Shown piece after piece: positions 989 to 55,636 of a DNA stretch of 64,000 nucleotides. Source of the DNA: Acidobacteria bacterium RIFCSPLOWO2_12_FULL_67_14b (GTDB lineage Bacteria; Acidobacteriota; Vicinamibacteria; Vicinamibacterales; UBA2999); contig MELE01000135.1 in assembly GCA_001768615.1 (NCBI GenBank), positions 37,590-101,589 on the forward strand, given 5' to 3'. Positions within the stretch are counted from its first letter, which is position 1, and each line of letters starts with the position of its first letter. The position numbers were made by a program, and so were the translations under genes. Below the pieces are notes generated by a model. The model was not told the origin of the DNA. It was given only the letters and a program-made list of their open reading frames with translations, and searched no databases.

Positions 989-1645
989 ATGAGCCCACGC
1001 CCGAGAAAGGTCAGCGACGACGAGGTGTTCCAGGCCACGCACCGGGCGATGTCGCGCCTGGGCCCCGGCGAGCTGACCCTGGCGGCGATCGCCGGCGAGG
1101 CCGGCCTCACCGCCGGCGCCCTGGTGCAGCGCTTCGGGTCGAAACGCGGCCTCCTGCTGGCGCTCTCGGACCGCTACTCGGGCGGCGCCAAGGAGATGTT
1201 CGACCAGCTGCGGCAGGCCCATCGCTCGCCGCTGGCGGCCCTGCGCGCCTACAGTGACTGCATTTCACGCCTCGCCACCTCGCCGGCCGCGCTCGCGCGG
1301 AACCTCTCATACCTGCAGATCGATCTCACCGATCCGGATTTTCGCAAGCATCTGGTCAAGCACGCCCGCGCCTCGCGCAAGCAACTGCGGTCGATCGTCG
1401 ACGACGCCATCGCCGCGCGCGAGCTCGTGGGAACCACCAACGCCAGGCAGCTCGCGCGGACGCTGGAGGCCGTTCTAGGCGGGTCGATGATGGCCTGGGG
1501 GTATTACGCGGAAGGGACGGCGGCCCAGTGGATGCGCCAGGACCTCGAAGCGGTGCTGAAGCCGTACGTCAAGGCAGAAGGCAGAAGGCAGAAGGCAGAA
1601 GGCAGAAGGCAGAAGGCAGAAGGCAAGGCGTGTCTAGTCTTCTGA
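989..1645 (+). CDS. TetR/AcrR family transcriptional regulator; C-terminal tail encoded by a heptamer array
   Basis: N-terminal HTH LTLAAIAGEAGLTAGALVQRFGSKRGLL. The last ~25 aa (KAEGRRQKAEGRRQKAEGKACLVF) are translated from the GGCAGAA repeat. Confidence 0.8.
   Translation: MSPRPRKVSDDEVFQATHRAMSRLGPGELTLAAIAGEAGLTAGALVQRFGSKRGLLLALSDRYSGGAKEMFDQLRQAHRSPLAALRAYSDCISRLATSPAALARNLSYLQIDLTDPDFRKHLVKHARASRKQLRSIVDDAIAARELVGTTNARQLARTLEAVLGGSMMAWGYYAEGTAAQWMRQDLEAVLKPYVKAEGRRQKAEGRRQKAEGKACLVF
1573..1628. repeat. Tandem heptamer array (GGCAGAA) x7 plus one degenerate unit
   Basis: Seven perfect GGCAGAA units at 1573-1621, then GGCAAGG. Lies inside the 3' end of the TetR CDS. Confidence 0.95.
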
Positions 1646-1782
1646 GCAGCCGCCGGCCTAATTTAGGCAACGCGCTGCCACTGCATCCAGGCCGGCACCG
1701 GTCATCGTCACCGACGCTGCCTCTACCGCAACTAATGGTGGTCGGGCCTCTGGCACAGGCCTTGTAGTATGAGAGTCTTGTT

Positions 1783-2412
1783 ATGACCATCTTCAAGTCG
1801 GCGTCGGCCGTGATCGTATCGGCAGCGTTGTTCGGCGGCTGCGCGCCCGAAGCGCTGGGATCGGCAAGCGCCGCCGAAAACCAGGCCCAGCCTGCTGCCG
1901 TCACCGCGCCACCGCGCGTCAACACCCAGGGCCTGGCGACGCTCGAATTCCAGAACCGCATCAAAGCGTACTTGAAGGTCCACAACGAAGCGGAGACCAA
2001 GGTCCCGAACCTGAGGGAGACCTCCGACCCGGCGCAGATCTCCGAGCGCGAAGCCGCGCTGGCCAAGATGATCCAGACGCTGCGCGCGGGCGCCCAGCCC
2101 GGCGAGATCTTCGCGGCCGAATACCAGCCCTACTTCATCAAGATCGTCAAGGACGACTTCGCCGGCCGCTCCGCCGCCGATCGCAAGGCGCTCATCTGGG
2201 AGCTGCCGAAGAACATGAAGGTGGACATCAACACCGTCTACCCGACGACGCTGCCGCTGGCGACGTTCCCGGCGGCGCTGCTGCGCAAGCTGCCCGACCT
2301 GCCGCCCGAGCTTGAATACCGCATCGTCGGCCGCAGCCTGATCCTGCGCGATGTGAAGGCCAACCTGATCGTCGACATCCTGCGCGACGTGGTGCCGACG
2401 ATTCCGAGCTGA
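1783..2412 (+). CDS. Hypothetical lipoprotein
   Basis: Signal peptide with lipobox-like AALFGGC. Coherent non-repetitive translation. First gene of a co-directional cluster. Confidence 0.6.
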   Translation: MTIFKSASAVIVSAALFGGCAPEALGSASAAENQAQPAAVTAPPRVNTQGLATLEFQNRIKAYLKVHNEAETKVPNLRETSDPAQISEREAALAKMIQTLRAGAQPGEIFAAEYQPYFIKIVKDDFAGRSAADRKALIWELPKNMKVDINTVYPTTLPLATFPAALLRKLPDLPPELEYRIVGRSLILRDVKANLIVDILRDVVPTIPS

Positions 2413-2436
2413 CGCTGACGCGAGGTGAATCTGACC

Positions 2437-3345
2437 ATGCGACTCCGACCCCTGCTTCTCGTGCTGTTGCTGGCGCTGTCGTCGATTCTGGCGACCAGCA
2501 CCGCGCAGATTCCCCAGCCGCGGCCGGGCGTGCCGCAGATGTCCGCCGTCGGCGAGACGATGGCGCCGGCGGGCAGCGACTCGGTCCGGTTCCTCGTACT
2601 CGGCGACACCGGCACCGGCGACCGCGCCCAGTTCGCTGTCGGCGTGCAGGTCTGGAAGTCGCACCAGGTGTTCCCCTACGAGTTCGCAATCATGCTGGGC
2701 GACAACATCTACGGCTCCGAGCGCCCGCAGGACTTCGCGCGCAAGTTCGAGCAGCCGTACAAGCCCCTGATCGACGCGAAGATCCCGTTCTATGCCTCGC
2801 TGGGCAACCACGACGATCCGAACCAGCGGTACTACAAGCTGTTCGGGATGGGCGGGGAGCGCTTCTATTCGTTCCAGAAGAAGGACGTGCGTTTCTTCGC
2901 GCTCGACAGCAACTACATGGACAAGGACCAGCAATCCTGGCTGCAGAAAGAGCTGTCTGGCTCCACCGAGAAGTGGAAGGTCGCGTTCTTCCATCACCCC
3001 ATCTATTCGTCGGGCGGGCGGCACGGATCCGAAGTGGACCTCCGCGCCATCGTCGAGCCTCTCTTCCTGAAGTACGGCGTCAACGTGGTCTTCTCGGGCC
3101 ACGAACATTTCTACGAGCGCCTCAAGCCGCAGAAGGGCCTCCATTACTTCACCAGCGGCGGCGCCGCCAAGCTGCGTTCCGGCGACATCATCACCGGGCC
3201 GCTGACGGCAAAGGGCTTCGATACCGAGCAGAGCTACATGGTGGTCGAGATCGACGGCGACGTGCTGCGGTTCCAGACGCTGTCACGCCGCGGCAAGCGC
3301 GTGGACTCGGGTGAGTTCACACGACAGAACGCCGGCACCCAATGA
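2437..3345 (+). CDS. Metallophosphoesterase (calcineurin-like/purple acid phosphatase-like), secreted
   Basis: Motifs GDTGTGD, GDNIY, GNHD, FFHHP and GHEHFYER, plus a signal peptide. ATG at 2437 (alternative GTG at 2425). Confidence 0.85.
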   Translation: MRLRPLLLVLLLALSSILATSTAQIPQPRPGVPQMSAVGETMAPAGSDSVRFLVLGDTGTGDRAQFAVGVQVWKSHQVFPYEFAIMLGDNIYGSERPQDFARKFEQPYKPLIDAKIPFYASLGNHDDPNQRYYKLFGMGGERFYSFQKKDVRFFALDSNYMDKDQQSWLQKELSGSTEKWKVAFFHHPIYSSGGRHGSEVDLRAIVEPLFLKYGVNVVFSGHEHFYERLKPQKGLHYFTSGGAAKLRSGDIITGPLTAKGFDTEQSYMVVEIDGDVLRFQTLSRRGKRVDSGEFTRQNAGTQ

Positions 3346-4295
3346 CGACGCTGGGCGTGCGTGCCGCGGTCACCCTGATCGCGGTCACTGTTGCCTGCTT
3401 CCCTGAGCGGGGCAGCCAGGCGCAGTCGCCGGCGCCCACGACCGGACCGGCGCCGGAGCTGGCGCAGTTGTGGCAGGACCCGGGCGACCTGGCGTCACGC
3501 GACCTGTTCTACGGGCGCGGCGGCAAGCCGCTGGCGCCGCCGCCGGCCACCGAGTTCGCGTTCGCGGGCCTCGACACCGTCGGCTACAGCCAGGGGTACG
3601 ACGTGGTGGATCCGCAGGGCCGCACGTGGGACGTCAAGACCGGCGATGAAAGTCAGCCGGAAGTCGTCGCCAGCCGCGTGCTGTGGGCCGCCGGCTACCA
3701 CCAGCCGATCGTGTACTTCCTGCCCGAATGGTTCATGAAGAATGGGCCGGTGGCGAGGCCGCTCGCGGGCCGCTTCCGGCTCGAAGCCGATCACGTGAAC
3801 GGCGGCACGTGGTCCTGGACCGAGAATCCCTTCGCCGGCACGCGCCAGTTCCAGGGTCTCGTGATCGCGAACCTGCTGCTCAACAACTGGGACTTCAAGC
3901 CCACCAACAACCGCGTCTACCAGATGCCGCCGGACCTCACGCCGTCGCGATGGTTCGTGGTGCAGGACATCGGCGCCTCGCTGGGCAGGACGGGGTGGCC
4001 GGTGGGCAACCGCAACAACATCGACGACTTCGAGCGCCAGCGCTTCGTGATCGGCGTCGAGAACGGCCGGGTGCAGTTCGATTACCGGGGGCGCCACACG
4101 GAGCTGCTCGAAACGATCACGCCGGCGGAGGTGCTGTGGATCTGCGATATCCTCAACCGGATCTCCGATGCGCAATGGTCCGACGCATTTCGCAGCGCGG
4201 CGTATCCACAGGACACGGGTGACCGGTACATCCGGAAGATCAAGTCGAAGATCCAGGAAGGGCTCCGCCTCGGATCGAAGGGATCGGACCGATGA
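3342..4295 (+). CDS. Secreted protein with atypical protein-kinase-like core (possibly CotH-like)
   Basis: Signal peptide. WDVK (beta3 Lys-like), catalytic-loop-like D-F-K-P-T-N at 3891-3908, and DIG (DFG-like) at 3966-3974. ATGA overlap with the upstream gene stop. Confidence 0.6.
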   Translation: MTTLGVRAAVTLIAVTVACFPERGSQAQSPAPTTGPAPELAQLWQDPGDLASRDLFYGRGGKPLAPPPATEFAFAGLDTVGYSQGYDVVDPQGRTWDVKTGDESQPEVVASRVLWAAGYHQPIVYFLPEWFMKNGPVARPLAGRFRLEADHVNGGTWSWTENPFAGTRQFQGLVIANLLLNNWDFKPTNNRVYQMPPDLTPSRWFVVQDIGASLGRTGWPVGNRNNIDDFERQRFVIGVENGRVQFDYRGRHTELLETITPAEVLWICDILNRISDAQWSDAFRSAAYPQDTGDRYIRKIKSKIQEGLRLGSKGSDR

Positions 4296-4960
4296 ACCCC
4301 ATTGACATTCCTGGAGTGATGGACAACCTCCAGGAAGAACTGCTGGCCTCGTTGATTCGCCTGCCGCTGGCCGCGCTGCTGGGCGCCGCGCTGGCGCTGC
4401 GGCCCAGGCGCGGCGGCACGCCGCCTCGGCAACCAGCCGTGGTCCAGACGCAGATCATCCTGGCGGTGGTCGGGTCGCTGATCATGCTGGTGGTGGGCTC
4501 CAGCCTCGCGCGCGCGTTCGGCATCGTCGGCGCCGCCAACCTGATTCGCTATCGCTCGAAGATCGACGACCCGAAGGATGCGGTGGTGATGCTCTGCGCC
4601 CTGTCGGTCGGACTGGCCGCCGGCGTCGGCCTCTATGGGCTGGCGACGATCGGCACCGCGTTCCTCGTGCTCTGCCTCTGGATCATCGAAGGCTTCGAGC
4701 CGCAGACGCGCATCTTCGAGCTCGGCCTGAAGATGGGGGCACACAGCCAGGAGCTGCGGCCAAAGATCGAGCAGGTGCTGCGCCGGTTCAAGGTGCGGTA
4801 CGAGCTGCGCACCTCCGCGGAAGACGAGGTGTCCTACATGGTCACCACGCCGCGCAAGCTCCAGACCGATCGGGTGTCGAACGCCCTCATGGAGCTCGTG
4901 CCGGCCGGCAAGGCCGCCATCGTCTGGGACGAAAAGTCCAAGGACAAGGTGCCGAAGTAG
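4292..4960 (+). CDS. DUF4956-like membrane protein
   Basis: Four TM helices and the SLARAFGIVGAANLIRYRSKIDDPKDAVVML signature that I associate with DUF4956. Start overlaps the upstream stop (ATGA). Confidence 0.65.
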   Translation: MNPIDIPGVMDNLQEELLASLIRLPLAALLGAALALRPRRGGTPPRQPAVVQTQIILAVVGSLIMLVVGSSLARAFGIVGAANLIRYRSKIDDPKDAVVMLCALSVGLAAGVGLYGLATIGTAFLVLCLWIIEGFEPQTRIFELGLKMGAHSQELRPKIEQVLRRFKVRYELRTSAEDEVSYMVTTPRKLQTDRVSNALMELVPAGKAAIVWDEKSKDKVPK

Positions 4961-4962
4961 CC

Positions 4963-5853
4963 GTGAAGCTCATCATCCAACCCGACGCCGGCGTCCTGCC
5001 TGTCGTGCAGGCCATCAAGAGGGCGAAGACGTCGATCGACGTGTTCATCTTCCGCTTCGATCGTGGGGAAGTGGAAAAGGCGCTGGCCGCGGCCGCCGAG
5101 CGCGGCGTGACCGTGCGCGCGCTGATCGCGAACACCAACCGGGGCGGCGAAGCCAAGCTGCGCAAGCTCGAACAGCGCATGCTGGCGGCGGGCCTGAACG
5201 TGTCGCGCAGCGACGACGAACTCCTGCGTTACCACGCGAAGTACATGATCTGCGACCACACGCTGCACCTGCTGGGCTTCAACTTCACCAAGCTCGACAT
5301 CGACAGGAGCCGGAGCTTTGCGATTTCCACCAAGAACCACAAGGCCGTGCAGGAAGCGTCGAAGCTGTTCGAAGCCGACGTCACCCGCCAGCCGTACACG
5401 CCCGCCAAGTCGAACCTCGTGGTGAGCCCGGAAACGTCGCGGGAAATGCTCGGCGCCTTCATCAAGGGCGCCCGCAAGGAGCTGGTGATCTACGACGCGA
5501 AGGTCCACGACCCGGCGATGATCAAGCTACTGAAGGACCGCGTCGACAAGGGCGTGAAGGTGCGCGTGCTCGGCACCGTGAGGGGCAAGGAGGGCGGCAT
5601 CGAAGCGTACCCGCTGGGGGGCATGCGGCTCCACGTCCGCGCCATCATCCGCGACGGCACGCGCGCGTTCGTGGGCAGCCAGAGCCTGCGGAAGGAAGAG
5701 CTCGACCGCCGCCGCGAGGTCGGGCTGATCGTGACCAATCCGGCCGTGGCGCGAAAGCTGCTGCAGATCTTCGAGGTCGACTGGGAAGAGTCGGCCAAGA
5801 AGAAACCGAAGGACGAGAAGGACAAGAAGAGCGAGAAGGCGAGCGCGGCCTAG
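4963..5853 (+). CDS. Phospholipase D-like (HKD) domain protein
   Basis: First HKD motif HAKYMICD. Second motif is HVRAIIRD...GSQS, with Arg replacing the canonical Lys. GTG start 2 nt after the upstream stop. Confidence 0.75.
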   Translation: MKLIIQPDAGVLPVVQAIKRAKTSIDVFIFRFDRGEVEKALAAAAERGVTVRALIANTNRGGEAKLRKLEQRMLAAGLNVSRSDDELLRYHAKYMICDHTLHLLGFNFTKLDIDRSRSFAISTKNHKAVQEASKLFEADVTRQPYTPAKSNLVVSPETSREMLGAFIKGARKELVIYDAKVHDPAMIKLLKDRVDKGVKVRVLGTVRGKEGGIEAYPLGGMRLHVRAIIRDGTRAFVGSQSLRKEELDRRREVGLIVTNPAVARKLLQIFEVDWEESAKKKPKDEKDKKSEKASAA

Positions 5854-6552: not shown

Positions 6553-6594
6553 TCAACCGCGACGGGCTGCAAGAACGATACCGCCGTGGGTTCC

Positions 6595-6646
6595 CACGAA
6601 GGTTCCTCACGAAGGTTCATCACGAAGGTTCCTCACGACGGTTCTG
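6595..6646. repeat. Tandem 13-mer array (CACGAAGGTTCCT) x4
   Basis: Units CACGAAGGTTCCT, CACGAAGGTTCAT, CACGAAGGTTCCT, CACGACGGTTCTG. A partial inverted copy GAACCTCCGTGAGGA lies at 6672-6686. Confidence 0.9.
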
Positions 6647-6723
6647 GGGGTCCCGCCACAGAAGCGTAACCGAACCTCCGTGAGGAATCCGGGCGCCGGG
6701 CGCCGGGATTCGATCTTGCTTCC

Positions 6724-6744
6724 GGAGCCCGGAGCCCGGAGCCC
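6724..6744. repeat. Tandem heptamer array (GGAGCCC) x3
   Basis: Three perfect units immediately before the TPR gene stop. GGGCGCC x2 at 6691-6704 nearby. Confidence 0.85.
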
Positions 6745-6746
6745 GT

Positions 6747-7673: not shown

Positions 7674-8884
7674 GAACGGTCTCCTGACGTCGCCTCGGTC
7701 TGTTCGGGGTCGAGAAGTCCCCCCTGGATCGGCGCCTCGAGCTTGCGCGCCACGGTTTCCAGCGGGTCGATCAACGGGATTTCCTTGGCACTGCCGGCGC
7801 CCAGCTCGCGGAACCGCCGCGCCTTGACCAGCACGTTGCTTTCGAACGATCCCACCAGCTTGTTGAACATGCCGAAGGTCCCATCCATCTTGCGCCGCAG
7901 ATCTTCGAGGTGTTCCGCCATCGTCGCCACGCTTTCGTGCAGCGTGCGTCCCAGGCGGCTGATCTCTTCGGCGTTGATGGTGAGCCGTTCCTGCTTCCAG
8001 CCGAAGGCCGCCGCCCGCAGCAGCGCGATCAGCGTCAGCGGGCTGGCGATGATCACGTTCTGCTTGACGCCGAAGTCGATGAGCAGCGCGTCCTGTTCGA
8101 GCGCGGCCATGTAGATGGCTTCGGCCGGCAGGAACAGCACCACCATTTCCGGAGACGACGGGAACTGATCCCAGTAGGCCTTGGCGCCGAGCTTGGTCAC
8201 ATGGTCTTTCACCTGCCGCACGTGATCCGCCAGCTTGCCGGTGCGCACGCCCTCGTCGGTCGCGCCCTGCGCGTCGAGGAAGGCTTCGAGCGGCGCTTTC
8301 GCATCCACGACAATCGAGCGGCCGCCGGGGATGTTGATCGTCATGTCGGGCCGCATGCGGCCGGTTTCGGTGAAGATCGTCGGCTGCTCGTCGAAGTCGC
8401 AGTGCTCCATCATGCCGGCCAGCTCGACGACCTTGCGCAACTGCACTTCGCCCCAGCGCCCGCGCACGCCCGGCGAGCGCAGCGCCCGCACCAGGTTCTG
8501 CGTTTCCTGCTGCAGTTGCTGTTGCGTCTGGCCGACGAGGCTCAGCATGGTCCGCAGGCTGGCGCTGTCGTCGACGCGGGACTTTTCGACCTCGCGCAGC
8601 TTGGCATCGACCTGGACGAGCGTGTCCTTGATCGGCCCGACCAGCGAGTCGAGGTGCTGCTGCCGCTGGCCGAGGTCCGCGGCAGCCTCCTTGTGCACGT
8701 TGCCGATCTTCTGATCGGCCAGCTTGAGAAACTCGTCGGTGCTCGACTTCAGCGCGGCGGCGGCGAGCGCTTCGAACGAATCCCGCAGCTGGGCCTGCTG
8801 GGTCGCGCGGCTGCGTGAGGCCAGCACCCACCCGGCGGCAAAGCCCGCGACCAGCGCCCCGACAACGGCAAAAGTGAGTTCCAA
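7670..8884 (-). CDS. rmuC: DNA recombination protein RmuC
   Basis: N-terminal TM, long coiled coil, and a conserved C-terminal region (RPDMTINIPGGRSIVVDAKAPLEAF...VLFLPAEA...IIASPLTLIALL). Its stop overlaps the TPR gene ATG (ATGA). Confidence 0.85.
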   Translation of the reverse strand: MELTFAVVGALVAGFAAGWVLASRSRATQQAQLRDSFEALAAAALKSSTDEFLKLADQKIGNVHKEAAADLGQRQQHLDSLVGPIKDTLVQVDAKLREVEKSRVDDSASLRTMLSLVGQTQQQLQQETQNLVRALRSPGVRGRWGEVQLRKVVELAGMMEHCDFDEQPTIFTETGRMRPDMTINIPGGRSIVVDAKAPLEAFLDAQGATDEGVRTGKLADHVRQVKDHVTKLGAKAYWDQFPSSPEMVVLFLPAEAIYMAALEQDALLIDFGVKQNVIIASPLTLIALLRAAAFGWKQERLTINAEEISRLGRTLHESVATMAEHLEDLRRKMDGTFGMFNKLVGSFESNVLVKARRFRELGAGSAKEIPLIDPLETVARKLEAPIQGGLLDPEQTEATSGDRS

Positions 8885-8891
8885 ACTGGGC

Positions 8892-8926
8892 AGCTTTCGG
8901 CTATCAGCTTTCAGCCTTCAGCCGAG
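8892..8926. repeat. Tandem heptamer array (AGCTTTC/AGCCTTC family) x5
   Basis: Units AGCTTTC GGCTATC AGCTTTC AGCCTTC AGCCGAG; reverse complement of the GCTGAAG family at 55564-55636. Confidence 0.8.
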
Positions 8927-8929
8927 AGG

Positions 8930-10510
8930 TTATTGTTGCGTCGGCGGCCGCGGCGGCGCCGTCGGCTTCGGCAACGCCTTGCGCGGCAGCATCTGCTCGC
9001 GGTTCGCCGTGTGATACACGAACGCCGCGGTGATCACCGCGTTCTTCATGAGGTCCGCCGCCACCAGTTGATCGTACACATCAAGATTCGAGTGGTGCGT
9101 CCGGCTGCTGTACTGGATCGGATCCTGGATGAACTGGAAGCCCGAGAGGCCGACCGCGTTGTACGCGAGGTGATCGGTACCGCCCGTATTGCGGATGGTG
9201 AGGCTGCCGGCCCCGAGGTTCTCGAACGGGACGAGCCAGGCGCGGAAGATCGGCGCGACGGCCTCATTCCCCTGCAGGTAGACGCCGCGATACTGGCCGG
9301 TGCCGTTGTCCATGTTGAAGTAGCCGGCGAGCTGGGCATGCTCGGGCTTGACCTGCATGGTGGCGGGATCGGCGAAGTGGTTCTTGACGTACATGCGCGA
9401 TCCGATCAGGCCCTGTTCCTCGCCGGTCCAGAGGCCGAGCCGCACCGTGCGGCGCAGCCGCAGGCCCGACTGCTTGAGGATGCGCATCGCCTCCATCATC
9501 ACCGCCGACCCGGCGGCGTTGTCGACCGCGCCGACGCCGGCGTGCCACGAGTCGAAGTGCGCGCCCAGCATCACGACCTCGTCGGCCTTGTCGGTGCCCG
9601 GGATCTCCGCGACGATGTTGAACATGTTCTGGTCGGCGTCGTGGAACGAGCTCCTGACGTCGACTTCGATCGTGACCGGCGTGCCCTTGCCAACCATCCG
9701 GGCGAGGCGGTTGTAGTGTTCGGTCGCCACCGCCAGCTGCGGCGGCACCGGCGGATCCTTCGGGTTGCGCGATCCGCCCGAGCCTACGAGCACGCTGCCG
9801 CTGTCGCCGCGCCCGGAGCCGGGCTCGAGCACCGCCACCGCGCCCTCCGCGATCAGGAATGCATTACGCTTGGCCGCGAACGCCTGTCCGCCCCCGGGAC
9901 CAAAACCGCCGCGCCCCGGTGACGGCGGCTCCTGGACCGCGAGCTCGTTGAGCTCCGTGGCTGTGTAGCGATGGGCCGGCGCGTCGAACATCGGCTTCAC
10001 CTCGCGGACGGCCTGCAGCAGCACGACCTTGCCCTTGAGCTTGCCGCGGAACTTGTCGAGGTCCGCGTCGGTGGCGAGCGGCGCGAGCACGGCCTCCGCG
10101 ACCACCGGGCCGTTGGTGCCCGGTGTCCACGCGCGCGCGTAGGCGATCACCGGCCACGGCGAGGGCTTGACCACGTGCACCACGGTGCGCTCGTTGCTCC
10201 AGCCGCGGCCGAAGGTTTCACCCCACGGTTCCTGCTTCGCATTGGCGAGGCCCCATTCGGTCAGCTTCTTCACCGTCCAGTCGGCCGCCGCCCGCAGCTG
10301 CGGCGAGTTGGTCAGCCGCGGACCGTGGACCTCGGTGAGCCACCACGCGGTGTCCATGACCTGCGAGCGGTCGAAGCCTTCTTCCTTGATCCGCTGGATG
10401 GCGTCGAGGTCGATCTGTTCGCTCGACTGCGCAGACAGGCCGGGCAGACCGGTCAGGACCAGCGCGAAGCACGCGATCGGCAGGAAAAGTAGTCGTCGTC
10501 TCGTCACCAT
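8930..10510 (-). CDS. M28 family zinc aminopeptidase, secreted
   Basis: GAHFDSWHAGVGAVDNAAGSAVMMEAMRIL and GLWTGEEQGLIGS motifs plus a signal peptide. Start chosen at MVTRRR (GGAGG 6 nt upstream); the track ORF begins at 10531. Confidence 0.8.
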   Translation of the reverse strand: MVTRRRLLFLPIACFALVLTGLPGLSAQSSEQIDLDAIQRIKEEGFDRSQVMDTAWWLTEVHGPRLTNSPQLRAAADWTVKKLTEWGLANAKQEPWGETFGRGWSNERTVVHVVKPSPWPVIAYARAWTPGTNGPVVAEAVLAPLATDADLDKFRGKLKGKVVLLQAVREVKPMFDAPAHRYTATELNELAVQEPPSPGRGGFGPGGGQAFAAKRNAFLIAEGAVAVLEPGSGRGDSGSVLVGSGGSRNPKDPPVPPQLAVATEHYNRLARMVGKGTPVTIEVDVRSSFHDADQNMFNIVAEIPGTDKADEVVMLGAHFDSWHAGVGAVDNAAGSAVMMEAMRILKQSGLRLRRTVRLGLWTGEEQGLIGSRMYVKNHFADPATMQVKPEHAQLAGYFNMDNGTGQYRGVYLQGNEAVAPIFRAWLVPFENLGAGSLTIRNTGGTDHLAYNAVGLSGFQFIQDPIQYSSRTHHSNLDVYDQLVAADLMKNAVITAAFVYHTANREQMLPRKALPKPTAPPRPPTQQ

Positions 10511-10733: not shown

Positions 10734-12584
10734 ATGATCCGAGTGCTTCCAGCGGTCGGCGCGCCCGACGACTCGACAATCGCGGATGCGTTCGGACGCC
10801 GCACGCGCGGTGTCGACGCCGAGGCCGGCGATGAGGTCGAGTTTCTCGAGCTGCCGGCGGCGCTCGTCGAGCATTCCGGGTTCGTGACCGCCCTGGCCGA
10901 GCGGGTGGCGCGCTTCGCCACCGTCCGCCACACCTCGTACGCACACATCCGCCGCCTCGATCGACCAGCGGCCGATCGGCTCATCCTGGTCTCGGATTCG
11001 ACGCCTGGCTGGCGTCTGTCGGAGCTGCTGTTCGTCGCGTCGCACGCCCAACTGCCGCTCGACATCACGGTCGTCATCGGGATTTTGCGCCAGCTGCTGC
11101 CCGCCGCGGCGCTCTATGGCCGTCACAATCGCGACTCGGCGATCGGCGCCTTGTCGCCCGAACGCCTGATTGTGACGCCGCAGGCGCGCCTGGTGATCAC
11201 CGAGCACGCGTTCGGCCCCGCGCTCGAAAAGCTGAACCTCGGACGCGATCGCCTGTGGCGCGAGCTGCGCGTCGCCATGCCGCCTTCCGCCGGCCTGCCG
11301 CGCGCGAACGCGCGCGCCGATGCCAACGCGCTGGGCGTCGTCGCGCTCTCGCTGCTGCTGGGCCGCGTGCTCCTGGAGGAAGAGTACCCGAGCCAGCTGC
11401 AATCATTGCTCGAGGCCACTACCGAACGGCACGACGGACAAGTCGCCCCGCTGTCGCCGGCCCTGGCCGCCTGGCTGGCGCGCGCGCTGCAGTTCGACGT
11501 GCGCACGGCGTTCCAGTCGCCCCACGAAGCGCAGGTCGCCTTCGAGGCGGTCCTGGCCAGCGATCGCGGATACGTCACGCAGCCGGCCGCACTCGAACAA
11601 TGGGTGTCGAAGGTCGGCGGCCTGATCGATGCCGAGCGCAATCCGCCGCCGCCACCTCCCGAGCCCGAGCCCGAAGCCGAAGCCGAAGCCGAACCCCAAG
11701 CCGAAGAGGAGCCGGCCTCCGCTCACGAAGATGATCGCGACCTGCGGCGCGACCAGCCCCAGGCCGAGTCCTCGTGGGCGCCGCCGCCGCAGCCGCACTT
11801 CGAACCACCGCCACCGTCGCCAGCACCGTTGCCGCCGCCGCCGGTCGAGGTCGAAGCCCCCGTCGTTGCTCGCGAGGTCGAGCCCGTCGAACCGGAGGCC
11901 TCCGCCTCCGCTCGCACAGAACCTGGCGAGCTACGGCGAGACCCCGCCGACCTGTCCGCCGAAGTTTCAGCGACGGCGGAAGCGGCCTCCGGCCGCGAAG
12001 GCGGGCCCGAAGAACCCGAAGCACCGTACGCACCTGAGGCACCCAGTTCAAAGGCGGGCGTTAGAAGTCCGTTAGTGATGGCGCTGCTGGCCGTCGCGAT
12101 GTTCCAGTCGATCGTCGTGATCTGGTTGTGGAACAGCAATCCCGGCGCACCGCGCGCCGGAGAAGGCGAGCTGGTCGTGCAGTCGCGGCCCGTGGCCGCG
12201 CGGGTCTCGATCGACGGCGAGGATCGCGGCGTGACGCCGCTCACGCTGAAGCTGCCGGCCGGCGCGCACGTGCTCGAAGTGGGGATCGGCAAGTCCGAGC
12301 CGCGCGTCATCCCGCTGACCATTCAGACCGGCGTGCAGACGGCGCAGTACATCGAGCTGCAGAACGTCCCGATGACCGGCGGCCTCGACATCCGCAGCGA
12401 CCCGCCGGGCGCGCGCGTGAGCATCGACGGGCAGGTTCGTGGGACGACGCCGGTGACGATTCGCGACCTGCCTCCCGGCGATCACGATGTTGTTCTGGAG
12501 GCGAATGGCCGAAAAGTGCGTCAGCCTGTCCGCATCGACGCGGGCACTACTGCGCAACTCGTGGTCCCGATGCCGAGGCGCTAG
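10734..12584 (+). CDS. Pseudokinase-like / Pro-Glu-rich linker / TM / tandem PEGA domain protein
   Basis: The N-terminal ~300 aa have a degenerate kinase catalytic loop (HNRDSAIGALSPERLIV) and EHAFG in place of DFG. PEPEPEAEAEAEP linker and one TM. Two PEGA-like repeats (ARVSIDGEDRGVTPLTL; ARVSIDGQVRGTTPVTIRDLPPGDHDVVL). Confidence 0.7.
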   Translation: MIRVLPAVGAPDDSTIADAFGRRTRGVDAEAGDEVEFLELPAALVEHSGFVTALAERVARFATVRHTSYAHIRRLDRPAADRLILVSDSTPGWRLSELLFVASHAQLPLDITVVIGILRQLLPAAALYGRHNRDSAIGALSPERLIVTPQARLVITEHAFGPALEKLNLGRDRLWRELRVAMPPSAGLPRANARADANALGVVALSLLLGRVLLEEEYPSQLQSLLEATTERHDGQVAPLSPALAAWLARALQFDVRTAFQSPHEAQVAFEAVLASDRGYVTQPAALEQWVSKVGGLIDAERNPPPPPPEPEPEAEAEAEPQAEEEPASAHEDDRDLRRDQPQAESSWAPPPQPHFEPPPPSPAPLPPPPVEVEAPVVAREVEPVEPEASASARTEPGELRRDPADLSAEVSATAEAASGREGGPEEPEAPYAPEAPSSKAGVRSPLVMALLAVAMFQSIVVIWLWNSNPGAPRAGEGELVVQSRPVAARVSIDGEDRGVTPLTLKLPAGAHVLEVGIGKSEPRVIPLTIQTGVQTAQYIELQNVPMTGGLDIRSDPPGARVSIDGQVRGTTPVTIRDLPPGDHDVVLEANGRKVRQPVRIDAGTTAQLVVPMPRR

Positions 12585-16767: not shown

Positions 16768-16803
16768 ACGACACCACGAAGATCACGAAGGCCGCGAACT
16801 CTC

Positions 16804-18348: not shown

Positions 18349-18375
18349 ATCTGTGTTATCTGTGTCATCTGTGGC
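18349..18375. repeat. Tandem 9-mer array (ATCTGTGTY) x3
   Basis: Units ATCTGTGTT ATCTGTGTC ATCTGTGGC, in the pcnB upstream region and the putative 5' end of the next gene. Confidence 0.8.
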
Positions 18376-25274: not shown

Positions 25275-25306
25275 CTCAAGCCCCTAAGCCCTCAAGTCCT
25301 CAGGCT
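25275..25306. repeat. Tandem 8-mer array (CTCAAGCC) x4
   Basis: Units CTCAAGCC CCTAAGCC CTCAAGTC CTCAGGCT fill the spacer between two co-directional genes. Confidence 0.85.
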
Positions 25307-26608: not shown

Positions 26609-26612
26609 AAGC

Positions 26613-27957: not shown

Positions 27958-27965
27958 ACACGCCT

Positions 27966-31346: not shown

Positions 31347-31348
<2 letters not shown>

Positions 31349-31367
31349 GCTTGAGGCTTGGGGCTTC
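31347..31367. repeat. Tandem heptamer array (AGGCTTG) x3
   Basis: Units AGGCTTG AGGCTTG GGGCTTC; related by reverse complement to the CTCAAGCC units at 25275-25306. Confidence 0.75.
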
Positions 31368-32803: not shown

Positions 32804-32905
32804 TTCCTCACGAAGGTTCCCCACGAAGGTTCTTGGCGCAGGTCCTTGGAGCGATCGTGAAGAACGATCGTGGGGAACCTTCGTGAGGAACCTTCGTGAG
32901 GAACC
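32803..32905. repeat. Compound hairpin built from inverted 13-mer arrays (CACGAAGGTTCCY / RGGAACCTTCGTG) around a central 7-bp stem
   Basis: Left arm 32803-32833, right arm 32869-32905. Central CGATCGT-GAAGA-ACGATCG at 32852-32870. Same unit as 6595-6646. Confidence 0.9.
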
Positions 32906-43074: not shown

Positions 43075-43138
43075 ATCAACCCGGGCTCCGGGAACCGCCA
43101 TGCGCGGGGACCCGTAGATCCCTTGATAGACTGACCTT

Positions 43139-45029: not shown

Positions 45030-46042
45030 CAGCGTGCGGTCCCCGCGGGCTCCGGGATCCGGGCGCCGGGATCCGGGGATGTATGCAAATAGCATCGCAC
45101 CGTGTGTTCCCGGTCGATCGCGGTGACCGGCGGGAACGCGGTGTCGCAGACCGCCATGCGCGCCGGACAACGCGGAGCGAACGAGCAGCCCGGCGGCAGC
45201 GATGCCAGGTTCGGCACCGTGCCGTCGATGGCCTTCAGGCGCGATCCGGCGCCACCGCCGGGGATCGACGCCAGCAGCCCGCGCGTGTAGGGGTGCATCG
45301 GGTCATGGAAGATCTCACGGACCGTTCCCTGCTCGACAATGCGGCCGGCGTACATGACGGCGACGCGGTCCGCGGTTTCGGCGATCACGCCGAGGTCGTG
45401 CGTGATCAGCAGCAGCGACAGGTCGAACTCGCGCTTCATGTCGCGCAGCAAGTCGAGGATCTGCGCCTGCACGGTGACATCGAGCGCCGTCGTCGGCTCG
45501 TCGGCAATCACCAGCGGCGGCTTGCAGGCGAGGGCCACGGCCATCATCACGCGCTGGCGCATGCCCCCTGAGAGCTGATGCGGGTAATCGTCGACGCGCT
45601 TCTCGGGATCGGTGATGAGGACCGCGCGCAGCAGCTCGACGGCGCGCGCCCGTGCGTCGCTCTTCGAGGCGAGCCCGTGCACGATCAGGGCCTCGGCGAT
45701 GTGCGCGCCGACGCGCATCACCGGATTGAGCGCCGCCATCGGCTCTTGGAACACGAAGCCGATGCCGGCCCCGCGCACGTGTCGCATTTCCGGCTCGGAG
45801 GTCGCGAGCAGGTCGCGCCCCTGGAAGATCACCTTGCCGCCGGCGACGCGGCCGGGCGACTGCACCAGCCGGATCAGGGAGAACGCGGTGACCGACTTGC
45901 CGCTGCCCGACTCGCCGACCAGGCCAAGCGTTTCGCCCTTGCGGATCTCGAACGACACGTCGTTTACCGCGACGACCGGCGTCGGCCGCACGTCGAACAC
46001 GGTCGTCAGGTTTTCGACGGCGAGTAAGGTGTCAGACACCAT
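45029..46042 (-). CDS. Oligopeptide/dipeptide-type ABC transporter ATP-binding protein (OppD/DppD-like)
   Basis: Start at [47 protein letters not shown], and a C-terminal Cys cluster CSFAPRCP...C. The C-terminal tail is encoded by CCGGG-type heptamers (45043-45077). Confidence 0.85.
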
Positions 46043-46095: not shown

Positions 46096-47697
<1,602 letters not shown>

Positions 47698-47828
47698 GAG
47701 CGCCCCGAGGCGCGAGCCCAGGAGGCGGGCGAAGCCCGCCGACCCCTACGAGCGGCCGTGAAGGCCGCGAGTCCCTGTAAGGCATCCGCCCAAGTTGCAG
47801 AAAAAACACCACTTATAGCGTTCTGCCC

Positions 47829-48342: not shown

Positions 48343-49092
48343 TTACGGCTGCCGCGACGCCTGCTGGGCGACCGCGGCAGCCGCTTTCTTCGCGGCTTCG
48401 GCATCCCCCAGGTAGTAGCTCTTCAGCGGCTTCAGGTTCGTGTCCAACTCGTACACCAGCGGAATGCCGGTCGGGATGTTCAGCTCGACGATGTCGGCAT
48501 CCGGAATGCCATCCAGATACTTGACGAGCGCGCGGATCGAATTGCCGTGCGCGACGATGATCACGCGCTGGCCGCTCCTGATGGCCGGCGCAATCGCCTC
48601 GTGCCAGTAGGGCAGGAACCGGGTCACCGTGTCTTTGAGCGATTCGGTCAGCGGCAGGTCCGCGGGTGGCAGCCCCTTGTAGCGCGGATCGCGCGACGGA
48701 TGCCGCGGATCGTCCGGCGTGAGCGGCGGCGGCGGCACGTCGTACGCCCGGCGCCAGATCTTGACCTGTGCTTCGCCGTGCTTGGCGGTGGTCTCGGCCT
48801 TGTTCAACCCCTGCAGCGCCCCGTAATGCCGTTCGTTGAGGCGCCAGCTACGCTGCACCGGGAGCCACAGCTGATCGAGCTCATCAAGGGTGATGTTGGC
48901 CGTGCGAATCGCCCGCGTCAGCACGGACGTAAACACGAGGTCGAAGGCGAAGCCGTCCTGCTTGAGCAGCAGCCCGGCCGCCTTCGCCTCCTCACGGCCC
49001 TTCTCGGTCAGGTCGACATCCGTCCACCCGGTGAAGCGGTTTTCCTTGTTCCAGGTGGATTCGCCGTGGCGCAGAAGCACTAATTTGTACAT
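48343..49092 (-). CDS. gpmA: 2,3-bisphosphoglycerate-dependent phosphoglycerate mutase
   Basis: [28 protein letters not shown]...ERHYGALQG...[13 protein letters not shown], canonical GpmA. Confidence 0.95.
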
Positions 49093-49102
49093 ATCCAAAA
49101 AG

Positions 49103-49212
49103 AAACCACGAAGGTCACGAAGAATAAACCACGAAGATCACGAAACTCTTCTTCTTGTATTGCCAAGATGGCCCTTCGTGCGCTTCGTGGTGATCTTCGT
49201 GCTCTTCGTGGT

Positions 49213-49215
<3 letters not shown>
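49103..49215. repeat. Palindromic element: (CACGAAG-type) array, AT-rich centre, (CTTCGTG-type) array
   Basis: Left arm AAACCACGAAGGTCACGAAGAATAAACCACGAAGATCACGAAAC (49103-49146). Right arm CCCTTCGTGCGCTTCGTGGTGATCTTCGTGCTCTTCGTGGTTTA (49172-49215). Sits between eno and gpmA. Confidence 0.9.
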
Positions 49216-50586
<1,371 letters not shown>

Positions 50587-50594
50587 CTAAAAAG

Positions 50595-50704
50595 AAACCA
50601 CGAAGACCACGAAGAAAACCACGAAGCCCACGAAGCCACTATTCAAAAGACAGAAGAAAAAGACCTTCGTGATCGTCGTGGTGATCTTCGTGATCTTCGT
50701 GGTC
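50595..50704. repeat. Second copy of the CACGAAG/CTTCGTG palindromic element
   Basis: Left arm AAACCACGAAGACCACGAAGAAAACCACGAAGCCCACGAAGCC (50595-50637). Right arm GACCTTCGTGATCGTCGTGGTGATCTTCGTGATCTTCGTGGTC (50662-50704). Sits between glgC and eno. Confidence 0.9.
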
Positions 50705-50707
50705 TAT

Positions 50708-51982
50708 TTATCCCCGCCGATCGGCCTCCGCTTCCAGCTTCAGCGCCTCTTCCGAAATCGGCCCGACGTAGGGCTCGTCGCCGGGCGCCACGACCACCAC
50801 GCCGCCTTCCGACACCGTGTGGCGGCGCCCATCCTCTTCGGCGTTATAGCCGATGGTCGCGCCGCGCGGGATGTCGACGTCGCGGTCGACGATCGCGCGG
50901 CGGATCCGCGCGTGGCGTCCCACTCGCACTCCGGGCATCAGGATCGACTCGTCGATCGTGCAGAAGCTGTGCACGCGGACGTTGGGGCAGAGGATGCTGC
51001 CGTTGATCCGGCTGCCCGAAACGATGCAGCCTTGCGAAATCAGCGAGTCCTGCGCCTCGCCGCGCCGCCAGTTCTCCCCGAACACGAACTTGGCCGGCGG
51101 CGCCTGCGGCATGTAGGTGCGCAGCGGCCAATCCGGATCGTACATATTGAACTCGGGGTTCACGTGGCACAGGTCCATCTGCGCCTCGTAGTAGGCGTCG
51201 AGCGTGCCGATGTCGCGCCAGTACTTCGCCGCCTTCTTGTTCTCGTCGTAGAACGGATACGCGTACGTCCGCCCGTTGCCGATGAGCGCCGGGATGATGT
51301 TCTTGCCGAAGTCGTGCTGGCTGTCCGGATCGGCGGCATCCCTTTCGAGCGACTGGATCAACAGGTCGCTGTCGAATACGTAGATGCCCATCGACGCCAG
51401 CGCCATGCTGGGCTGGCCCGGCATCCCCGGCGGCTGCTGCGGCTTCTCCAGGAAGCCGGTCACGCGATCGGTCTCATCCACGGCGACGATGCCGAAGCGG
51501 CGGCCGTCTTCGAGCGGCACCTCGATGGCCGCCAGCGTGACCTCGGCCCCGTGGTCGAGGTGGAACCGCAACATCTTCTGGTAATCCATCTTGTAGACGT
51601 GGTCACCGGCCAGCACCACGACATACAGCGGCGTTTCTTGGACGATGGAGTAGAGGTTCTGGTACACGGCGTCGGCGGTGCCCTGGTACCACTGCTCGCC
51701 CACGCGCTTCTGCGGCGGCAGGATCTCGATGAACTCGCCGAGCTCTTCCGACACGACGTTCCAGCCCTGGCGGATGTGGCGGTTGAGCGAGAGCGACTTG
51801 TATTGGGTGGCGATGAAGACGTGGCGCAGTCCCGAGTTGATGCAGTTGCTCAGGACGAAGTCGATGATGCGGTAGGGGCCGCCGAAGTACACCGCCGGCT
51901 TGGCGCGGTCCCTCGTGAGGGGAGCCAGCCGTTCGCCGGCCCCGCCCGCCAGCACGATCACAAGCACGTCGTCGCGCAGCAT
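50708..51982 (-). CDS. glgC: Glucose-1-phosphate adenylyltransferase
   Basis: Start at MLRDDVLVIVLAGGAGERLAPLTRDRAKPAVYFGGPYRIIDFVLSNC. Canonical GlgC including the left-handed beta-helix C-terminus. Confidence 0.95.
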   Translation of the reverse strand: MLRDDVLVIVLAGGAGERLAPLTRDRAKPAVYFGGPYRIIDFVLSNCINSGLRHVFIATQYKSLSLNRHIRQGWNVVSEELGEFIEILPPQKRVGEQWYQGTADAVYQNLYSIVQETPLYVVVLAGDHVYKMDYQKMLRFHLDHGAEVTLAAIEVPLEDGRRFGIVAVDETDRVTGFLEKPQQPPGMPGQPSMALASMGIYVFDSDLLIQSLERDAADPDSQHDFGKNIIPALIGNGRTYAYPFYDENKKAAKYWRDIGTLDAYYEAQMDLCHVNPEFNMYDPDWPLRTYMPQAPPAKFVFGENWRRGEAQDSLISQGCIVSGSRINGSILCPNVRVHSFCTIDESILMPGVRVGRHARIRRAIVDRDVDIPRGATIGYNAEEDGRRHTVSEGGVVVVAPGDEPYVGPISEEALKLEAEADRRG

Positions 51983-52119
51983 GATGGCAGCCTCAGCACG
52001 ATACCACCGGGATGGTCGGTTTGGCGTGTAAACCTCTACTATCACAACCAGTTAGAGTGTTTGACTTGCCCTGTCTGGCACTCGTATGATCTAGCGATCT
52101 GTGCAGAAACCGATCGGTT

Positions 52120-52161
52120 GAAAGCTGAAAGCCGAGAGCTGAAAGCCGAAAGCCGAAAGCA
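52120..52161. repeat. Tandem heptamer array (GAAAGCC/GAAAGCT) x6
   Basis: Units GAAAGCT GAAAGCC GAGAGCT GAAAGCC GAAAGCC GAAAGCA, in the divergent spacer 20 nt upstream of the next ATG. Confidence 0.9.
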
Positions 52162-55153: not shown

Positions 55154-55174
55154 GAAGGCGCTCGGCTCGGTGGA

Positions 55175-55194
55175 GACAGACCTTTAGGTTTGTC
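55175..55194. terminator. Hairpin GACAGACC-TTTA-GGTTTGTC between convergent genes
   Basis: 8-bp stem (one G:U in RNA). The loop contains the stop codon of the minus-strand small gene. Confidence 0.35.
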
Positions 55195-55402
55195 CGTGCC
55201 GCCTCGCGCAGGCGCGCTCCCTTCGGTCGCGCGTGGGCTCCGCGCCACGGCGCTTCAACTCAGCCACGATACTGGCGGGAAGATCCGTACGGCACTTGCA
55301 TGCTTTCGAATGAGCGAGGTGCCAGGTGACCCGCTGACCGAGTGTGGCGTGCGCGGGCATCCGGTTTGCCTTGTGCCACGTCGCGTTGATTCGACTCGTC
55401 AT
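55184..55402 (-). CDS. Small conserved-looking hypothetical protein (72 aa) with H-x4-C-x-C motif
   Basis: WHKANRMPAHATLGQRVTWHLAHSKACKCR...IVAELKRRG resembles a small protein family I recall seeing widely, but I cannot name it. Confidence 0.45.
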   Translation of the reverse strand: MTSRINATWHKANRMPAHATLGQRVTWHLAHSKACKCRTDLPASIVAELKRRGAEPTRDRRERACARRHGQT

Positions 55403-55563
55403 TCCGACCGCACCTCCTCGCCGTCAGGCGGAAGTGTCTACTTTAGCGAGGGAAGATCACGGTGCCATAGAACTTCAAACGCCGGCGGCTCCACGCGCTG
55501 AAACGTGGAGACAACCTCGACCGCCGTATACCGGCCGTGGCACCGGTCGCGCCCCAGCTTTCC

Positions 55564-55636
55564 GCTGACAGCTTTCGGCTGAGACGCGCTGAGAGCTGAA
55601 GGCTGAAGGCTGAAGGCTGAAGGCTGAGAGCTGAGC
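55564..55636. repeat. Tandem heptamer array (GCTGAAG/GCTGAGA family), about 10 units
   Basis: Units GCTGACA GCTTTCG GCTGAGA (CGC) GCTGAGA GCTGAAG x4 GCTGAGA GCTGAGC. Confidence 0.9.

Follow-up and report, generated by a model that had tools for sequence, protein, structure and literature searches.

Gene context and array census

The window analysed here is a 64,000-nt stretch of Acidobacteria bacterium RIFCSPLOWO2_12_FULL_67_14b (contig MELE01000135.1, positions 37,590 to 101,589), whose gene boundaries carry tandem arrays of 7–13-nt units, many of them paired with an inverted copy. Its G+C content was 67%, and 10.1% of it was non-coding by a gene model based on codon statistics and cross-checked against the gene tables of matching public contigs and NCBIfam. 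The gene content was that of ordinary housekeeping: glgC, eno, gpmA, acs, a TetR-family regulator, TonB-type proteins, and histidine kinases. The enolase encoded in the window showed at most 71% identity to named species representatives, the top ones being metagenome-assembled genomes (MAGs) of Acidobacteria or Vicinamibacterales, and closer relatives (80–88% identity) belonged to Acidobacteriota or Vicinamibacterales where they were named. For a 4-kb stretch of the window, 80–87% of the sampled words were present in groundwater and soil metagenome runs. The window accordingly belongs to the genome of an uncultured member of the Acidobacteriota that was assembled from metagenomes. A scan for tRNA and tmRNA genes found none.

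Arrays were counted using Tandem Repeats Finder (score ≥40, at least 2.8 copies, period 4–25) after merging overlapping rows, and the null expectation was taken from 50 third-order Markov simulations of the window. The window contained 19 merged arrays, whereas the simulations averaged 0.88 and never exceeded 3. Their periods were 7, 8, 9, 10, 13, and 14, with 7, 9, and 13 dominant; period 7 accounted for eight arrays, and in 13 of the 19 the period was not divisible by 3, where the Markov model predicted 0.54 such arrays. Twelve of the 19 fell in the non-coding 10.1% of the window. An earlier note on this DNA, made by reading the sequence, had proposed that such arrays are commoner than chance and concentrated at gene boundaries, and these counts bear it out; each repeat unit that it listed was also recovered at the place it had given. 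The preference for heptamers extended to other genomes, as 472 kb of unrelated contigs yielded 32 arrays of period 7, compared with six of period 8 and two of period 6.

Eight inverted array pairs, each consisting of a forward array, a centre, and a reverse array, were located at 6589–6690, 6689–6745, 26551–26959, 29765–29985, 32803–32905, 49105–49212, 50595–50705, and 55555–55634. Ranked by length, the top 13 inverted repeats of the window (within 400 nt) were all array pairs. When folds were compared with dinucleotide shuffles, the predicted hairpins of the inverted pairs had z-scores of about −2.5 to −12, and those of single arrays were about 0. The mirrored design that had been described as recurrent therefore holds for these pairs but not for the arrays at 1571, 8891, 18349, 25275, 31347, and 52120, which were single and non-inverted. 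Likewise, the arrays are largely but not solely a feature of spacers: four heptamer arrays lay within open reading frames (ORFs), at 1571–1625 (3′ tail of the TetR-family gene), 15104–15136, 45046–45077 (3′ end of an ABC ATPase gene), and 50144–50174 (an enolase loop).

By our reading of the gene tables, the array-bearing junctions comprised nine tandem, four divergent, and two convergent ones. Since all three types carry arrays, these are not simply terminators. Neither are they CRISPR arrays, as the units are 7–13 nt long and lie contiguously or 2–6 nt apart without spacers, nor a single family of repetitive extragenic palindromic (REP) sequences or of MITEs (miniature inverted-repeat transposable elements), as several unit families are present. 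On these three points, our results agreed with the earlier note.

The description of the units as locus-specific, by contrast, had to be abandoned, as the same few families recurred at several loci in the window and its 15-kb flanks. Arrays of CACGAAG, plain or as the 13-mer GGTTCCTCACGAA, occurred at five loci in the window, GGCAGAA arrays at four, GCYGARR arrays (GCTGAAG, GCTGAAA, GCCGAAA, GCTGAGA) at three (at least six including the flanks), and CCGGRGC arrays at five or six (at least eight including the flanks). AGGCTTG was a further recurrent family, and the recurrent families spanned three to eight loci each. In the 15 kb of the same genome beyond the window, the GCYGARR, CCGGRGC, and CAATC families appeared again, several as inverted pairs. 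On the other hand, GGCAGAA, GCTGAAG, CCGGAGC, and other units of the window had virtually no occurrences in 160 loci sampled from other organisms. The recurrence within the genome and the absence elsewhere indicate that each genome has its own small repertoire.

The arrays might be artefacts of short-read assembly or polishing, or products of chance in GC-rich DNA. The window derives from metagenomic data, Logan unitigs break within arrays, and one scaffold has an N-gap in a palindrome. However, the arrays were identical in independent assemblies (ENA, JGI, NCBI, and Logan) that cover many samples, and where alleles differed, each allele was found in several assemblies. Because the arrays recur in independent assemblies, they are not artefacts, and the roughly 0.9 arrays expected from simulation do not account for 19. 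The probability of this explanation is practically nil, and we consider it effectively refuted.

Strain-level variation of the arrays

Exact-protein look-ups yielded 30 contigs of co-occurring strains, which were 98.6–99.9% identical and covered approximately 57 kb of the window (contigs are cited below by L numbers); a look-up with the protein of 28506–29162 gave no match. Among strains with over 99% identity, indels of 7, 28, and 41 nt were confined to arrays. All indels of at least 7 nt in the 30 contigs lay in arrays or in a two-unit stub at 43079, apart from one garbled alignment (L092, 328–363). The GGCAGAA array at 1571–1625, a single array of 7.9 units called by Tandem Repeats Finder that lies within the 3′ tail of the ORF for the TetR-family regulator (which stops at 1645), consisted of eight, seven, or four units among strains, and the called product was 206, 213, or 218 amino acids long. 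The GCTGAAG array at 55555–55634 had one additional unit in L081, and the CCGGGCT sequence at 43079 had one additional unit (7 nt) in L083. In L220, the left arm of the GGCAGAA palindrome was shorter by one unit and the right arm was longer by 41 nt. Substitutions were not enriched, the arrays making up 2.0% of the sequence and 2.8% of the single-nucleotide polymorphisms (SNPs). Arrays thus gain and lose whole units among strains as replication slippage predicts; a comparison of copy number between strains had been suggested as a check for slippage, and on these natural strains its outcome was positive. The TetR-family ORF (1025–1645) reads through its array, whose length sets the frame and length of the C-terminal tail.

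At three spacers, whole arrays were also lost, collapsed, or exchanged for another family between near-identical strains. The eno-gpmA spacer was dimorphic: it was 120 nt long with a 4+4 palindrome in the window, L082, and L085, but 18 nt of unrelated sequence in seven of nine strain contigs. The RmuC-peptidase M28 spacer of L094 carried a 104-nt palindrome, (GGGCTCCGTGAGCC)x2 + (CCGGAGC)x7, instead of the GCYGARR array. At 31.35 kb, the spacer contained 2.9 units of AGGCTTG in the window, L221, L222, and L224, but a palindrome of at least 17 AGGCTTG and approximately 10 CAAGCCY units in L220, L223, and L226. The clustering of SNPs at the edges of the eno-gpmA alleles indicates that these alleles are exchanged by recombination. 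Contigs with dimorphic spacers were 99.2–99.9% identical away from the spacer edges, and the sequence comparison suggests that whole spacer alleles have been swapped by homologous recombination between diverged lineages. Clusters of SNPs within about 30 nt of the dimorphic spacer edges were observed at 49060–49092 and 49229–49260, and at 8860–8884 and 8930–8945.

Palindromes with CACGAAG cores

Arrays of CACGAAG (three cores at 9-nt spacing) were found in at least 120 metagenome contigs, with G+C contents of 39–68% among the matches listed, and 80 loci fetched from those matches were used for element statistics. The core was conserved, the linkers were variable, and the cores were spaced 9–13 nt apart. 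The typical form was 3+3 cores with loops of 6–261 nt. The forward-then-reverse polarity was found 47 times and the opposite polarity five times, and the outer ends followed the consensus T.AAC|CACGAAGG(A)CACGAAG with A-rich flanks. Several contigs carried two to five copies each, up to five per 13 kb, and the five copies in L124 had approximately 130 nt of internal sequence in common and lay in both orientations. Of 32 elements that could be placed, 19 were at tandem, 10 at convergent, and three at divergent junctions. In the window, the copies flanked the carbon-metabolism genes glgC, eno, gpmA, and acs. Except for variants at the glgC-eno spacer, CACGAAG arrays were absent from 17 named Acidobacteriota enolase loci, and the family is therefore patchy. 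In L124 (WNFL01413187.1, 12.9 kb), the CACGAAG-ended elements lie at 473–647, 3024–3201, 4791–5026, 10054–10249, and 12665–12831, are all preceded by AATCTCACC-type repeats, and have the appearance of a MITE-like subfamily.

These features invite comparison with REP-, REPIN- or MITE-like miniature mobile elements, whose cores would bind a trans-acting enzyme such as a Y1 transposase (RAYT/TIRYT); whole palindromes would then be copied into spacers, one unit family being one element family. The abundance of CACGAAG palindromes, their polarity and conserved ends, the several copies per contig, the REP-like placement, the eno-gpmA presence/absence allele, and the recurrence of the same families across the genome all favour this explanation, and terminal inverted repeat (TIR)-associated Y1 transposases (TIRYT) with TIR repeat families have been reported for Acidobacteria (Di Nocera et al. 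2013, PMC3733652). Like the REP, BIME, and REPIN sequences associated with RAYT and the TIR repeats associated with TIRYT, the CACGAAG elements are high-copy extragenic palindromes located mostly at gene 3′ ends; REP-type elements are also transcribed as hairpins, with proposed roles in mRNA stabilisation or transcription termination, and vary in presence among strains (PMC3733652), which the CACGAAG elements match. However, no GTAG or CGTC tag was present at their outer ends, and their arms are 25–45-nt arrays of heptamer cores, not a single 20–40-nt palindrome. A motif scan for RAYT/TIRYT (MPNHxH-type ORFs) found none, either in the window itself or across roughly 2 Mb of retrieved loci, among which there was no complete genome. 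They resemble MITEs in having TIR-like arms around a variable or conserved centre and several copies per contig, but most copies have only the arms in common, internal sequence being common only to the L124 copies, and the arms vary by whole units. Furthermore, the eno-gpmA alleles are unrelated spacers with edge SNPs, not a clean insertion with target duplication, which points to recombination; mobility leaves the single-unit additions unexplained; the loops of the two neighbouring eno elements are not clearly homologous; and the other families are simple 7-nt arrays without conserved ends. A mobile origin of the arrays in general is thus possible but doubtful. The CACGAAG family itself behaves as a dispersed palindromic element would, in a REP- or MITE-like manner, and not as a local slippage product.

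The arrays might instead be DNA-level platforms for a regulator or nucleoid protein, with cores 9–13 bp apart on one face of the helix as in response-regulator or Fur-type arrays. This would accord with the conserved cores, variable linkers, and spacing of about one helical turn, and with the position of the window copies beside glgC, eno, gpmA, and acs. Some contigs, however, carry one element per 2.5–5 kb, which is too dense for a regulon, and elements occur past stop codons more often than in promoters. The other families keep a strict 7-nt period, units differ among lineages, and arrays vary or vanish among strains without accompanying change. We therefore consider this explanation very unlikely.

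Hairpins flanking the enolase gene

Two elements of this family flank eno on the minus strand. One fills the eno-gpmA spacer (49093–49212), starting at the TAA stop codon of eno, and the other fills the glgC-eno spacer (50591–50709), from the TAA stop codon of glgC to UUUCUUUUU; both are 4+4 CACGAAG/CTTCGTG palindromes, with z-scores of −8.5 and −7.3, respectively. Flanked by an A-tract and a UUUCUUUUU tract, they resemble bidirectional terminators. The homology of their loops was weak (about 2 sd above shuffles), and recent copying between them is therefore not demonstrated.

An inverted array of spaced heptamer cores was present in the glgC-eno spacer of six lineages, whose enolases were 70–88% identical to each other. 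The core was CACGAAG in the window, CACGGAG in L231, L232, and L233, CACAAAG in L001, and CACGATG in L002, and the arms were complementary in all. In the six-lineage alignment, 15 of 22 pairs had changed on both sides, and 87.7% of cells were paired, compared with 71% in shuffled and 37–50% in slid alignments; none of 500 shuffles matched the observed values. The hairpin was absent from L003, L234–L238, and the P0029 contig, in which the spacer was about 11–21 nt, and from L005 (75 nt). The locus may have carried the hairpin ancestrally with frequent loss, or insertion may have occurred repeatedly, in each lineage with a member of its own family. As an observation on the neighbouring junction, the eno-gpmA spacers of L232 (11360–11435) and L233 (11405–11480) carry an inverted array of three CACNGAAA and three TTCCGTG units with an 8-nt period, in which the fold of the antisense strand is more stable than that of the sense strand by about 7 kcal/mol.

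Inverted arrays could accordingly be read as selected cis-acting RNA structures, such as terminators, RNase III or RNase E sites, or 3′-end stabilisers, which would set the relative expression of glgC, eno, and gpmA, the repeats being merely a way to build long stems. The stability of the hairpins (z down to −12), the start of elements at or inside stop codons together with the A-tract and UUUCUUUUU tract in the window, the co-varying arms with four cores in six lineages, and the depletion of CACGAAG elements at divergent junctions are in its favour. However, related lineages without the hairpin numbered six with spacers of 11–21 nt, the eno-gpmA hairpin was dispensable among near-identical strains, four of 15 array-bearing window spacers were divergent, and single arrays were unstructured. 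Rfam 15 gave no match at the gathering score anywhere in the window, and a search of 49050–50750 at E ≤ 1 returned a single chance match to a miRNA precursor (E = 0.63). A search for RNA-seq or metatranscriptome runs containing the eno region listed none. The stems at 49.1 and 50.6 kb are followed by UUUCUUUUU, but the elements of relatives lack this U-tract, and a consensus terminator scan of 44–58 kb flagged five sites against 7.6 expected, none of them at arrays. In addition, sense and antisense minimum free energies and G-U counts, compared as a sign of strand-specific RNA selection, showed no consistent asymmetry; as both strands fold about equally, the structure is not assignable to RNA or DNA. 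Palindromes made by duplication, or family-specific palindromes, would give equal covariation. An origin of the arrays as selected RNA structures is therefore tentative, and about as doubtful as a mobile origin; these two are the main rivals of the explanation given below, and they partly overlap.

Origin and turnover of the arrays

The arrays belong to the heptamer-dominated LSSR 5-11 class, with units of 7–13 nt in spacers and gene 3′ ends. All three marks of the class were found, namely head-to-tail units of 5–11 nt in excess of composition, a preference for period 7, and whole-unit polymorphism. According to the accounts in PMC4679880 and PMC4692102, Mrazek, Guo & Shah (2007) found heptanucleotides to be the commonest long repeats of 5–11 nt in most repeat-rich genomes, and proposed that slippage is favoured because 7 nt is the DNA segment held by the polymerase. 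As summarised there, the class comprises head-to-tail, mostly 7-nt units far beyond chance, chiefly outside coding frames, in free-living bacteria with large genomes, with variable length and slippage as the proposed cause. The present arrays share these traits but differ in that several unit families occur at many loci, most arrays lie within palindromes, and one family has spaced cores (9–13 nt) and conserved ends.

Inverted pairing also has a precedent. Approximately 185 GGGAATC arrays were described in each of two Xanthomonas species, with 70–75 close opposite-strand pairs comprising about three quarters of the arrays and potentially forming stem-loops or cruciforms; the arrays differed in length between species, kept their type (single or paired), and were assigned no function (Rehm et al. 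2015, PMC4692102). These and the Nostoc GGGGAYT arrays (PMC4692102) are intergenic heptamer arrays of 2–26 units, and the Xanthomonas arrays share with ours the inverted pairs, found at eight sites in the window, and the length variation between relatives. In Xanthomonas, however, one G-rich unit is used genome-wide and is read as quadruplex-forming (PMC4692102), whereas the window has at least six unrelated families, most without G-tracts and so not a single quadruplex-capable unit of the GGGNATC type, and turnover is documented here at strain level. Among our sampled enolase loci, the forward/centre/reverse design was also seen in L008, L018, L027, and L031, which represent Rhodanobacteraceae (L008, as a GGGAATA...ATTCCCG inverted array), Thiocapsa, Latescibacterota, and another Acidobacterium. 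TAACTGA arrays have been reported in Beggiatoaceae, Cyanobacteria, and Bacteroidetes (MacGregor 2015, PMC4679880); like the cyanobacterial STRR heptamers, they place a specific heptamer in tandem at many intergenic sites with a patchy phylogeny, as here. The TAACTGA repeats are direct (169 direct sets and one indirect) and lie just upstream of start codons (PMC4679880), whereas inverted pairs dominate in the window and proximity to stop codons is common.

The phenomenon is thus known in kind from Xanthomonas and cyanobacteria. The earlier note had known of no described mechanism for it, yet the heptamer excess with its slippage explanation and the paired inverted heptamer arrays were already in the literature, as reported in PMC4679880 and PMC4692102. 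Accordingly, the presence, excess, and hairpin potential of intergenic heptamer palindromes stood, and their locus-specificity and lack of precedent did not. Four features are additions to the earlier descriptions: a repertoire made up of several families, turnover documented among strains, the CACNNAG palindrome with its spaced cores and fixed polarity, and the co-varying orthologues of that palindrome.

The explanation that we favour, with some reservation, is that slippage drives these simple-sequence arrays, which become mirrored, collapse, and are seeded anew from a small repertoire; a role as REP-like hairpins is probably a secondary use. Slippage would build an array, and fold-back or template-switch replication would copy it next to itself in reverse, giving a palindrome with a short unique centre whose arms would from then on slip and diverge independently. 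Being unstable, long palindromes would collapse to one-armed or stub arrays or be replaced. Existing arrays would serve, through ectopic recombination or copying, as the source of new ones, which is suggested by the presence of only a handful of unit families in the genome. CACGAAG would be the extreme case, a dispersed palindromic element comparable to REP or MITE sequences with 9–13-nt core spacing, fixed polarity, and conserved ends. Palindromes past stop codons would be transcribed with their neighbours, and the resulting hairpins probably act as REP-like 3′-end-protecting, processing, or terminator hairpins; we regard this role as a use made of the arrays, not as the reason for their origin.

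Some details of the arms are consistent with this sequence of events. In the palindrome of L220 at 31.35 kb, the variant units GGGCTTG and AGACTTG occurred in both arms, as would be expected if one arm had been copied in reverse from the other. Elsewhere, every unit of one arm carried the same mismatch (GGGCTCC vs CCCGGCG at 6689–6745; GTGAAAC vs GTTTGCC in L018), which fits separate expansion of the arms after duplication. The 2.9-unit stub in the window at 31.35 kb looks like a collapsed palindrome.

Several points weigh against slippage and mirroring as a complete account. Inverted duplication is a step that we infer and did not observe, and no intermediate of it was seen directly. About 13 of about 20 arrays were identical in every strain sampled, so that mutation is not extremely fast. 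Slippage alone accounts neither for the recurrence of units between loci nor for the fixed polarity (47 vs 5) and conserved outer ends of the CACGAAG elements. The co-varying CACNNAG hairpin at glgC-eno in six lineages points to selection or to targeted insertion rather than to neutral turnover. As for the hairpin role, a simple terminator scan does not flag the elements, and the glgC-eno elements of relatives are without the U-tract of the window. The preference for heptamers is itself still unexplained. In another explanation, which we consider rather unlikely, the CACNNAG palindrome would be an undescribed, widespread structured intergenic element, marked by spaced cores, fixed polarity, T.AAC|CAC... 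ends, and a lineage-specific core with complementary arms, and recognised by a co-evolving trans-acting factor. The heptamer palindromes would then result from active sequence-specific copying, not passive slippage. The candidate factor would be a nuclease, a transposase, or an RNA-binding protein, and its recognition of the element would explain why each genome has few unit families.

Heptamer excess in bacterial intergenic DNA was recognised by 2007 at the latest, and neither a cause nor a function for it has gained acceptance. The present lineage provides a natural experiment, since many near-identical co-occurring strains differ only in array length, palindrome presence, or spacer family, and relatives with the same hairpin but different co-varying cores extend it. 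The rate of slippage, inverted duplication, palindrome collapse, the effect of the hairpin on eno-gpmA expression, and a core-recognising factor all become testable questions. The arrays also have practical effects: they move the stop codon, as in the TetR tail, and add peptides to enzymes, as in the enolase loops, and in Acidobacteriota MAGs they fragment assemblies and lead gene callers astray.

Arrays within coding regions

The CCGGGCT array in eno (50144–50174, 4.4 units on the plus strand, as are the other arrays of the window described here except the two palindromes flanking eno) coincided exactly with a 7-amino-acid insertion, DPGARSP, which is encoded by three units in frame. Two surface loops of enolase appear as hot spots for in-frame heptamer arrays, the sites in the window being 50144–50174 and amino acids 262–280 of the enolase; beyond the 7-amino-acid insertion, the window enolase has a second one of 17 amino acids. 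At the same two loops, relatives carry arrays of other units, CCCGGAA, TCAGGGA, and CCGGTTC (3415–3447 and 3779–3813 in L237/L238, 10452–10484 in L233, and 10407–10443 in L232), and enolase length in the clade ranges from 430 to 471 amino acids.

Other arrays overlapping ORFs were a degenerate GGCAGAA-type array within a DUF1015 ORF (15089–15136), 2.6 units of CCGGAGC at the 5′ end of a VWA-protein ORF (24325–24342), and 4.6 units of CGGGATC/CGGGCGC over the final codons of the ABC ATPase ORF (45046–45077). In the same genome, immediately outside the window, the 3′ ends of called glycosyltransferase ORFs contain inverted arrays of GCYGARR and CCGGRGC (L230, 7343–7571 and 8851–8947); as these arrays are free of stop codons, gene callers extend ORFs through them. 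The hexamer and 12-mer repeats (CCCGAG, CCGAAG) at 11658–11706, which encode a Pro/Glu/Ala-rich linker in a PEGA-domain ORF, are an ordinary in-frame coding repeat separate from the spacer phenomenon.

Other arrays of the window

The array at 6589–6690 consists of 4.4 units of GGTTCCTCACGAA, with the CACGAAG core at a 13-nt period, and a partial inverted copy at 6670–6690 (z = −2.7); it was identical across seven strain contigs. It adjoins an imperfect GC-rich palindrome (6689–6745, z = −3.9) of 2.7 CCGGGCG units, a centre, and 3.4 CCGGAGC units, which abuts the stop codon at 6747. The RmuC-peptidase M28 spacer is filled by a CAGCTTTC/CAGCC array (8885–8929), which is GCYGARR on the minus strand. 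Two CACGAAG units at 9-nt spacing lie in a 36-nt convergent spacer (16775–16790), and 2.8 units of ATCTGTGTY with no special fold lie in a divergent spacer (18349–18373). A CTCAAGCC-type array of the AGGCTTG family in reverse fills a 33-nt tandem spacer (25275–25302).

The GGCAGAA palindrome of a divergent spacer has a left arm of 8.3 GGCAGAA units (26551–26608) and a right arm of 5.3 TTCTGCC units (26906–26959), about 314 nt from the left arm (z = −5.9 for the region). On the minus strand, its centre (26609–26922) contains a 43-amino-acid ORF (MEKPFDIRERAFLF..., 26663–26794) with a possible frameshifted continuation; it matched nothing in NCBIfam or Pfam and may be a decayed small gene within the palindrome. 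The idea that this centre is a decayed gene for a four-helix-bundle (rRNA intervening-sequence) protein found no support in NCBIfam or Pfam and was dropped.

At 27907–27960, 3.1 units of GGATTCCGCA overlap the stop codon at 27915–27917 and are followed by a GCGCGGAAC/GTTCCGCG hairpin. The divergent spacer at 29765–29985 contains about 12 GATTG-type units, a centre, and about 12 CAATC-type units (z = −8.3), with arms of 55 nt that are 82% complementary. The 2.9 AGGCTTG units at 31347–31366 begin within a stop codon. At 32803–32905, inverted 13-mers (2.3 units of GTTCCYCACGAAG, a centre, and four reverse-complement units) gave the lowest z-score given here, −12.4. The stub at 43079–43092, CCCGGGCTCCGGG, is a nascent CCGGGCT array 5 nt past a stop codon, and the array at 55555–55634 is an inverted GCYGARR array of two CAGCTTTC units, a centre, and 4.7 GCTGAAG units (z = −2.5).

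A single array of 5.9 GAAAGCY/GAGAGCT units (GCYGARR family; 52120–52160) with no special fold lies in a divergent spacer, probably in a 5′ untranslated region (UTR). Just upstream, a sigma-70-like site, TTGACT-18-TATGAT (10/12 matches, 52061–52090), was noted; this putative promoter, if used, would put the array in the 5′ UTR of the gene starting at about 52181. Finally, within a 370-nt spacer that lies upstream of the gene for methylmalonyl-CoA mutase, 1-nt indels at 47699, 47703, 47727, and 47759 were common to several strains, and this stretch (47640–47760) is a variable non-coding region unrelated to the arrays.

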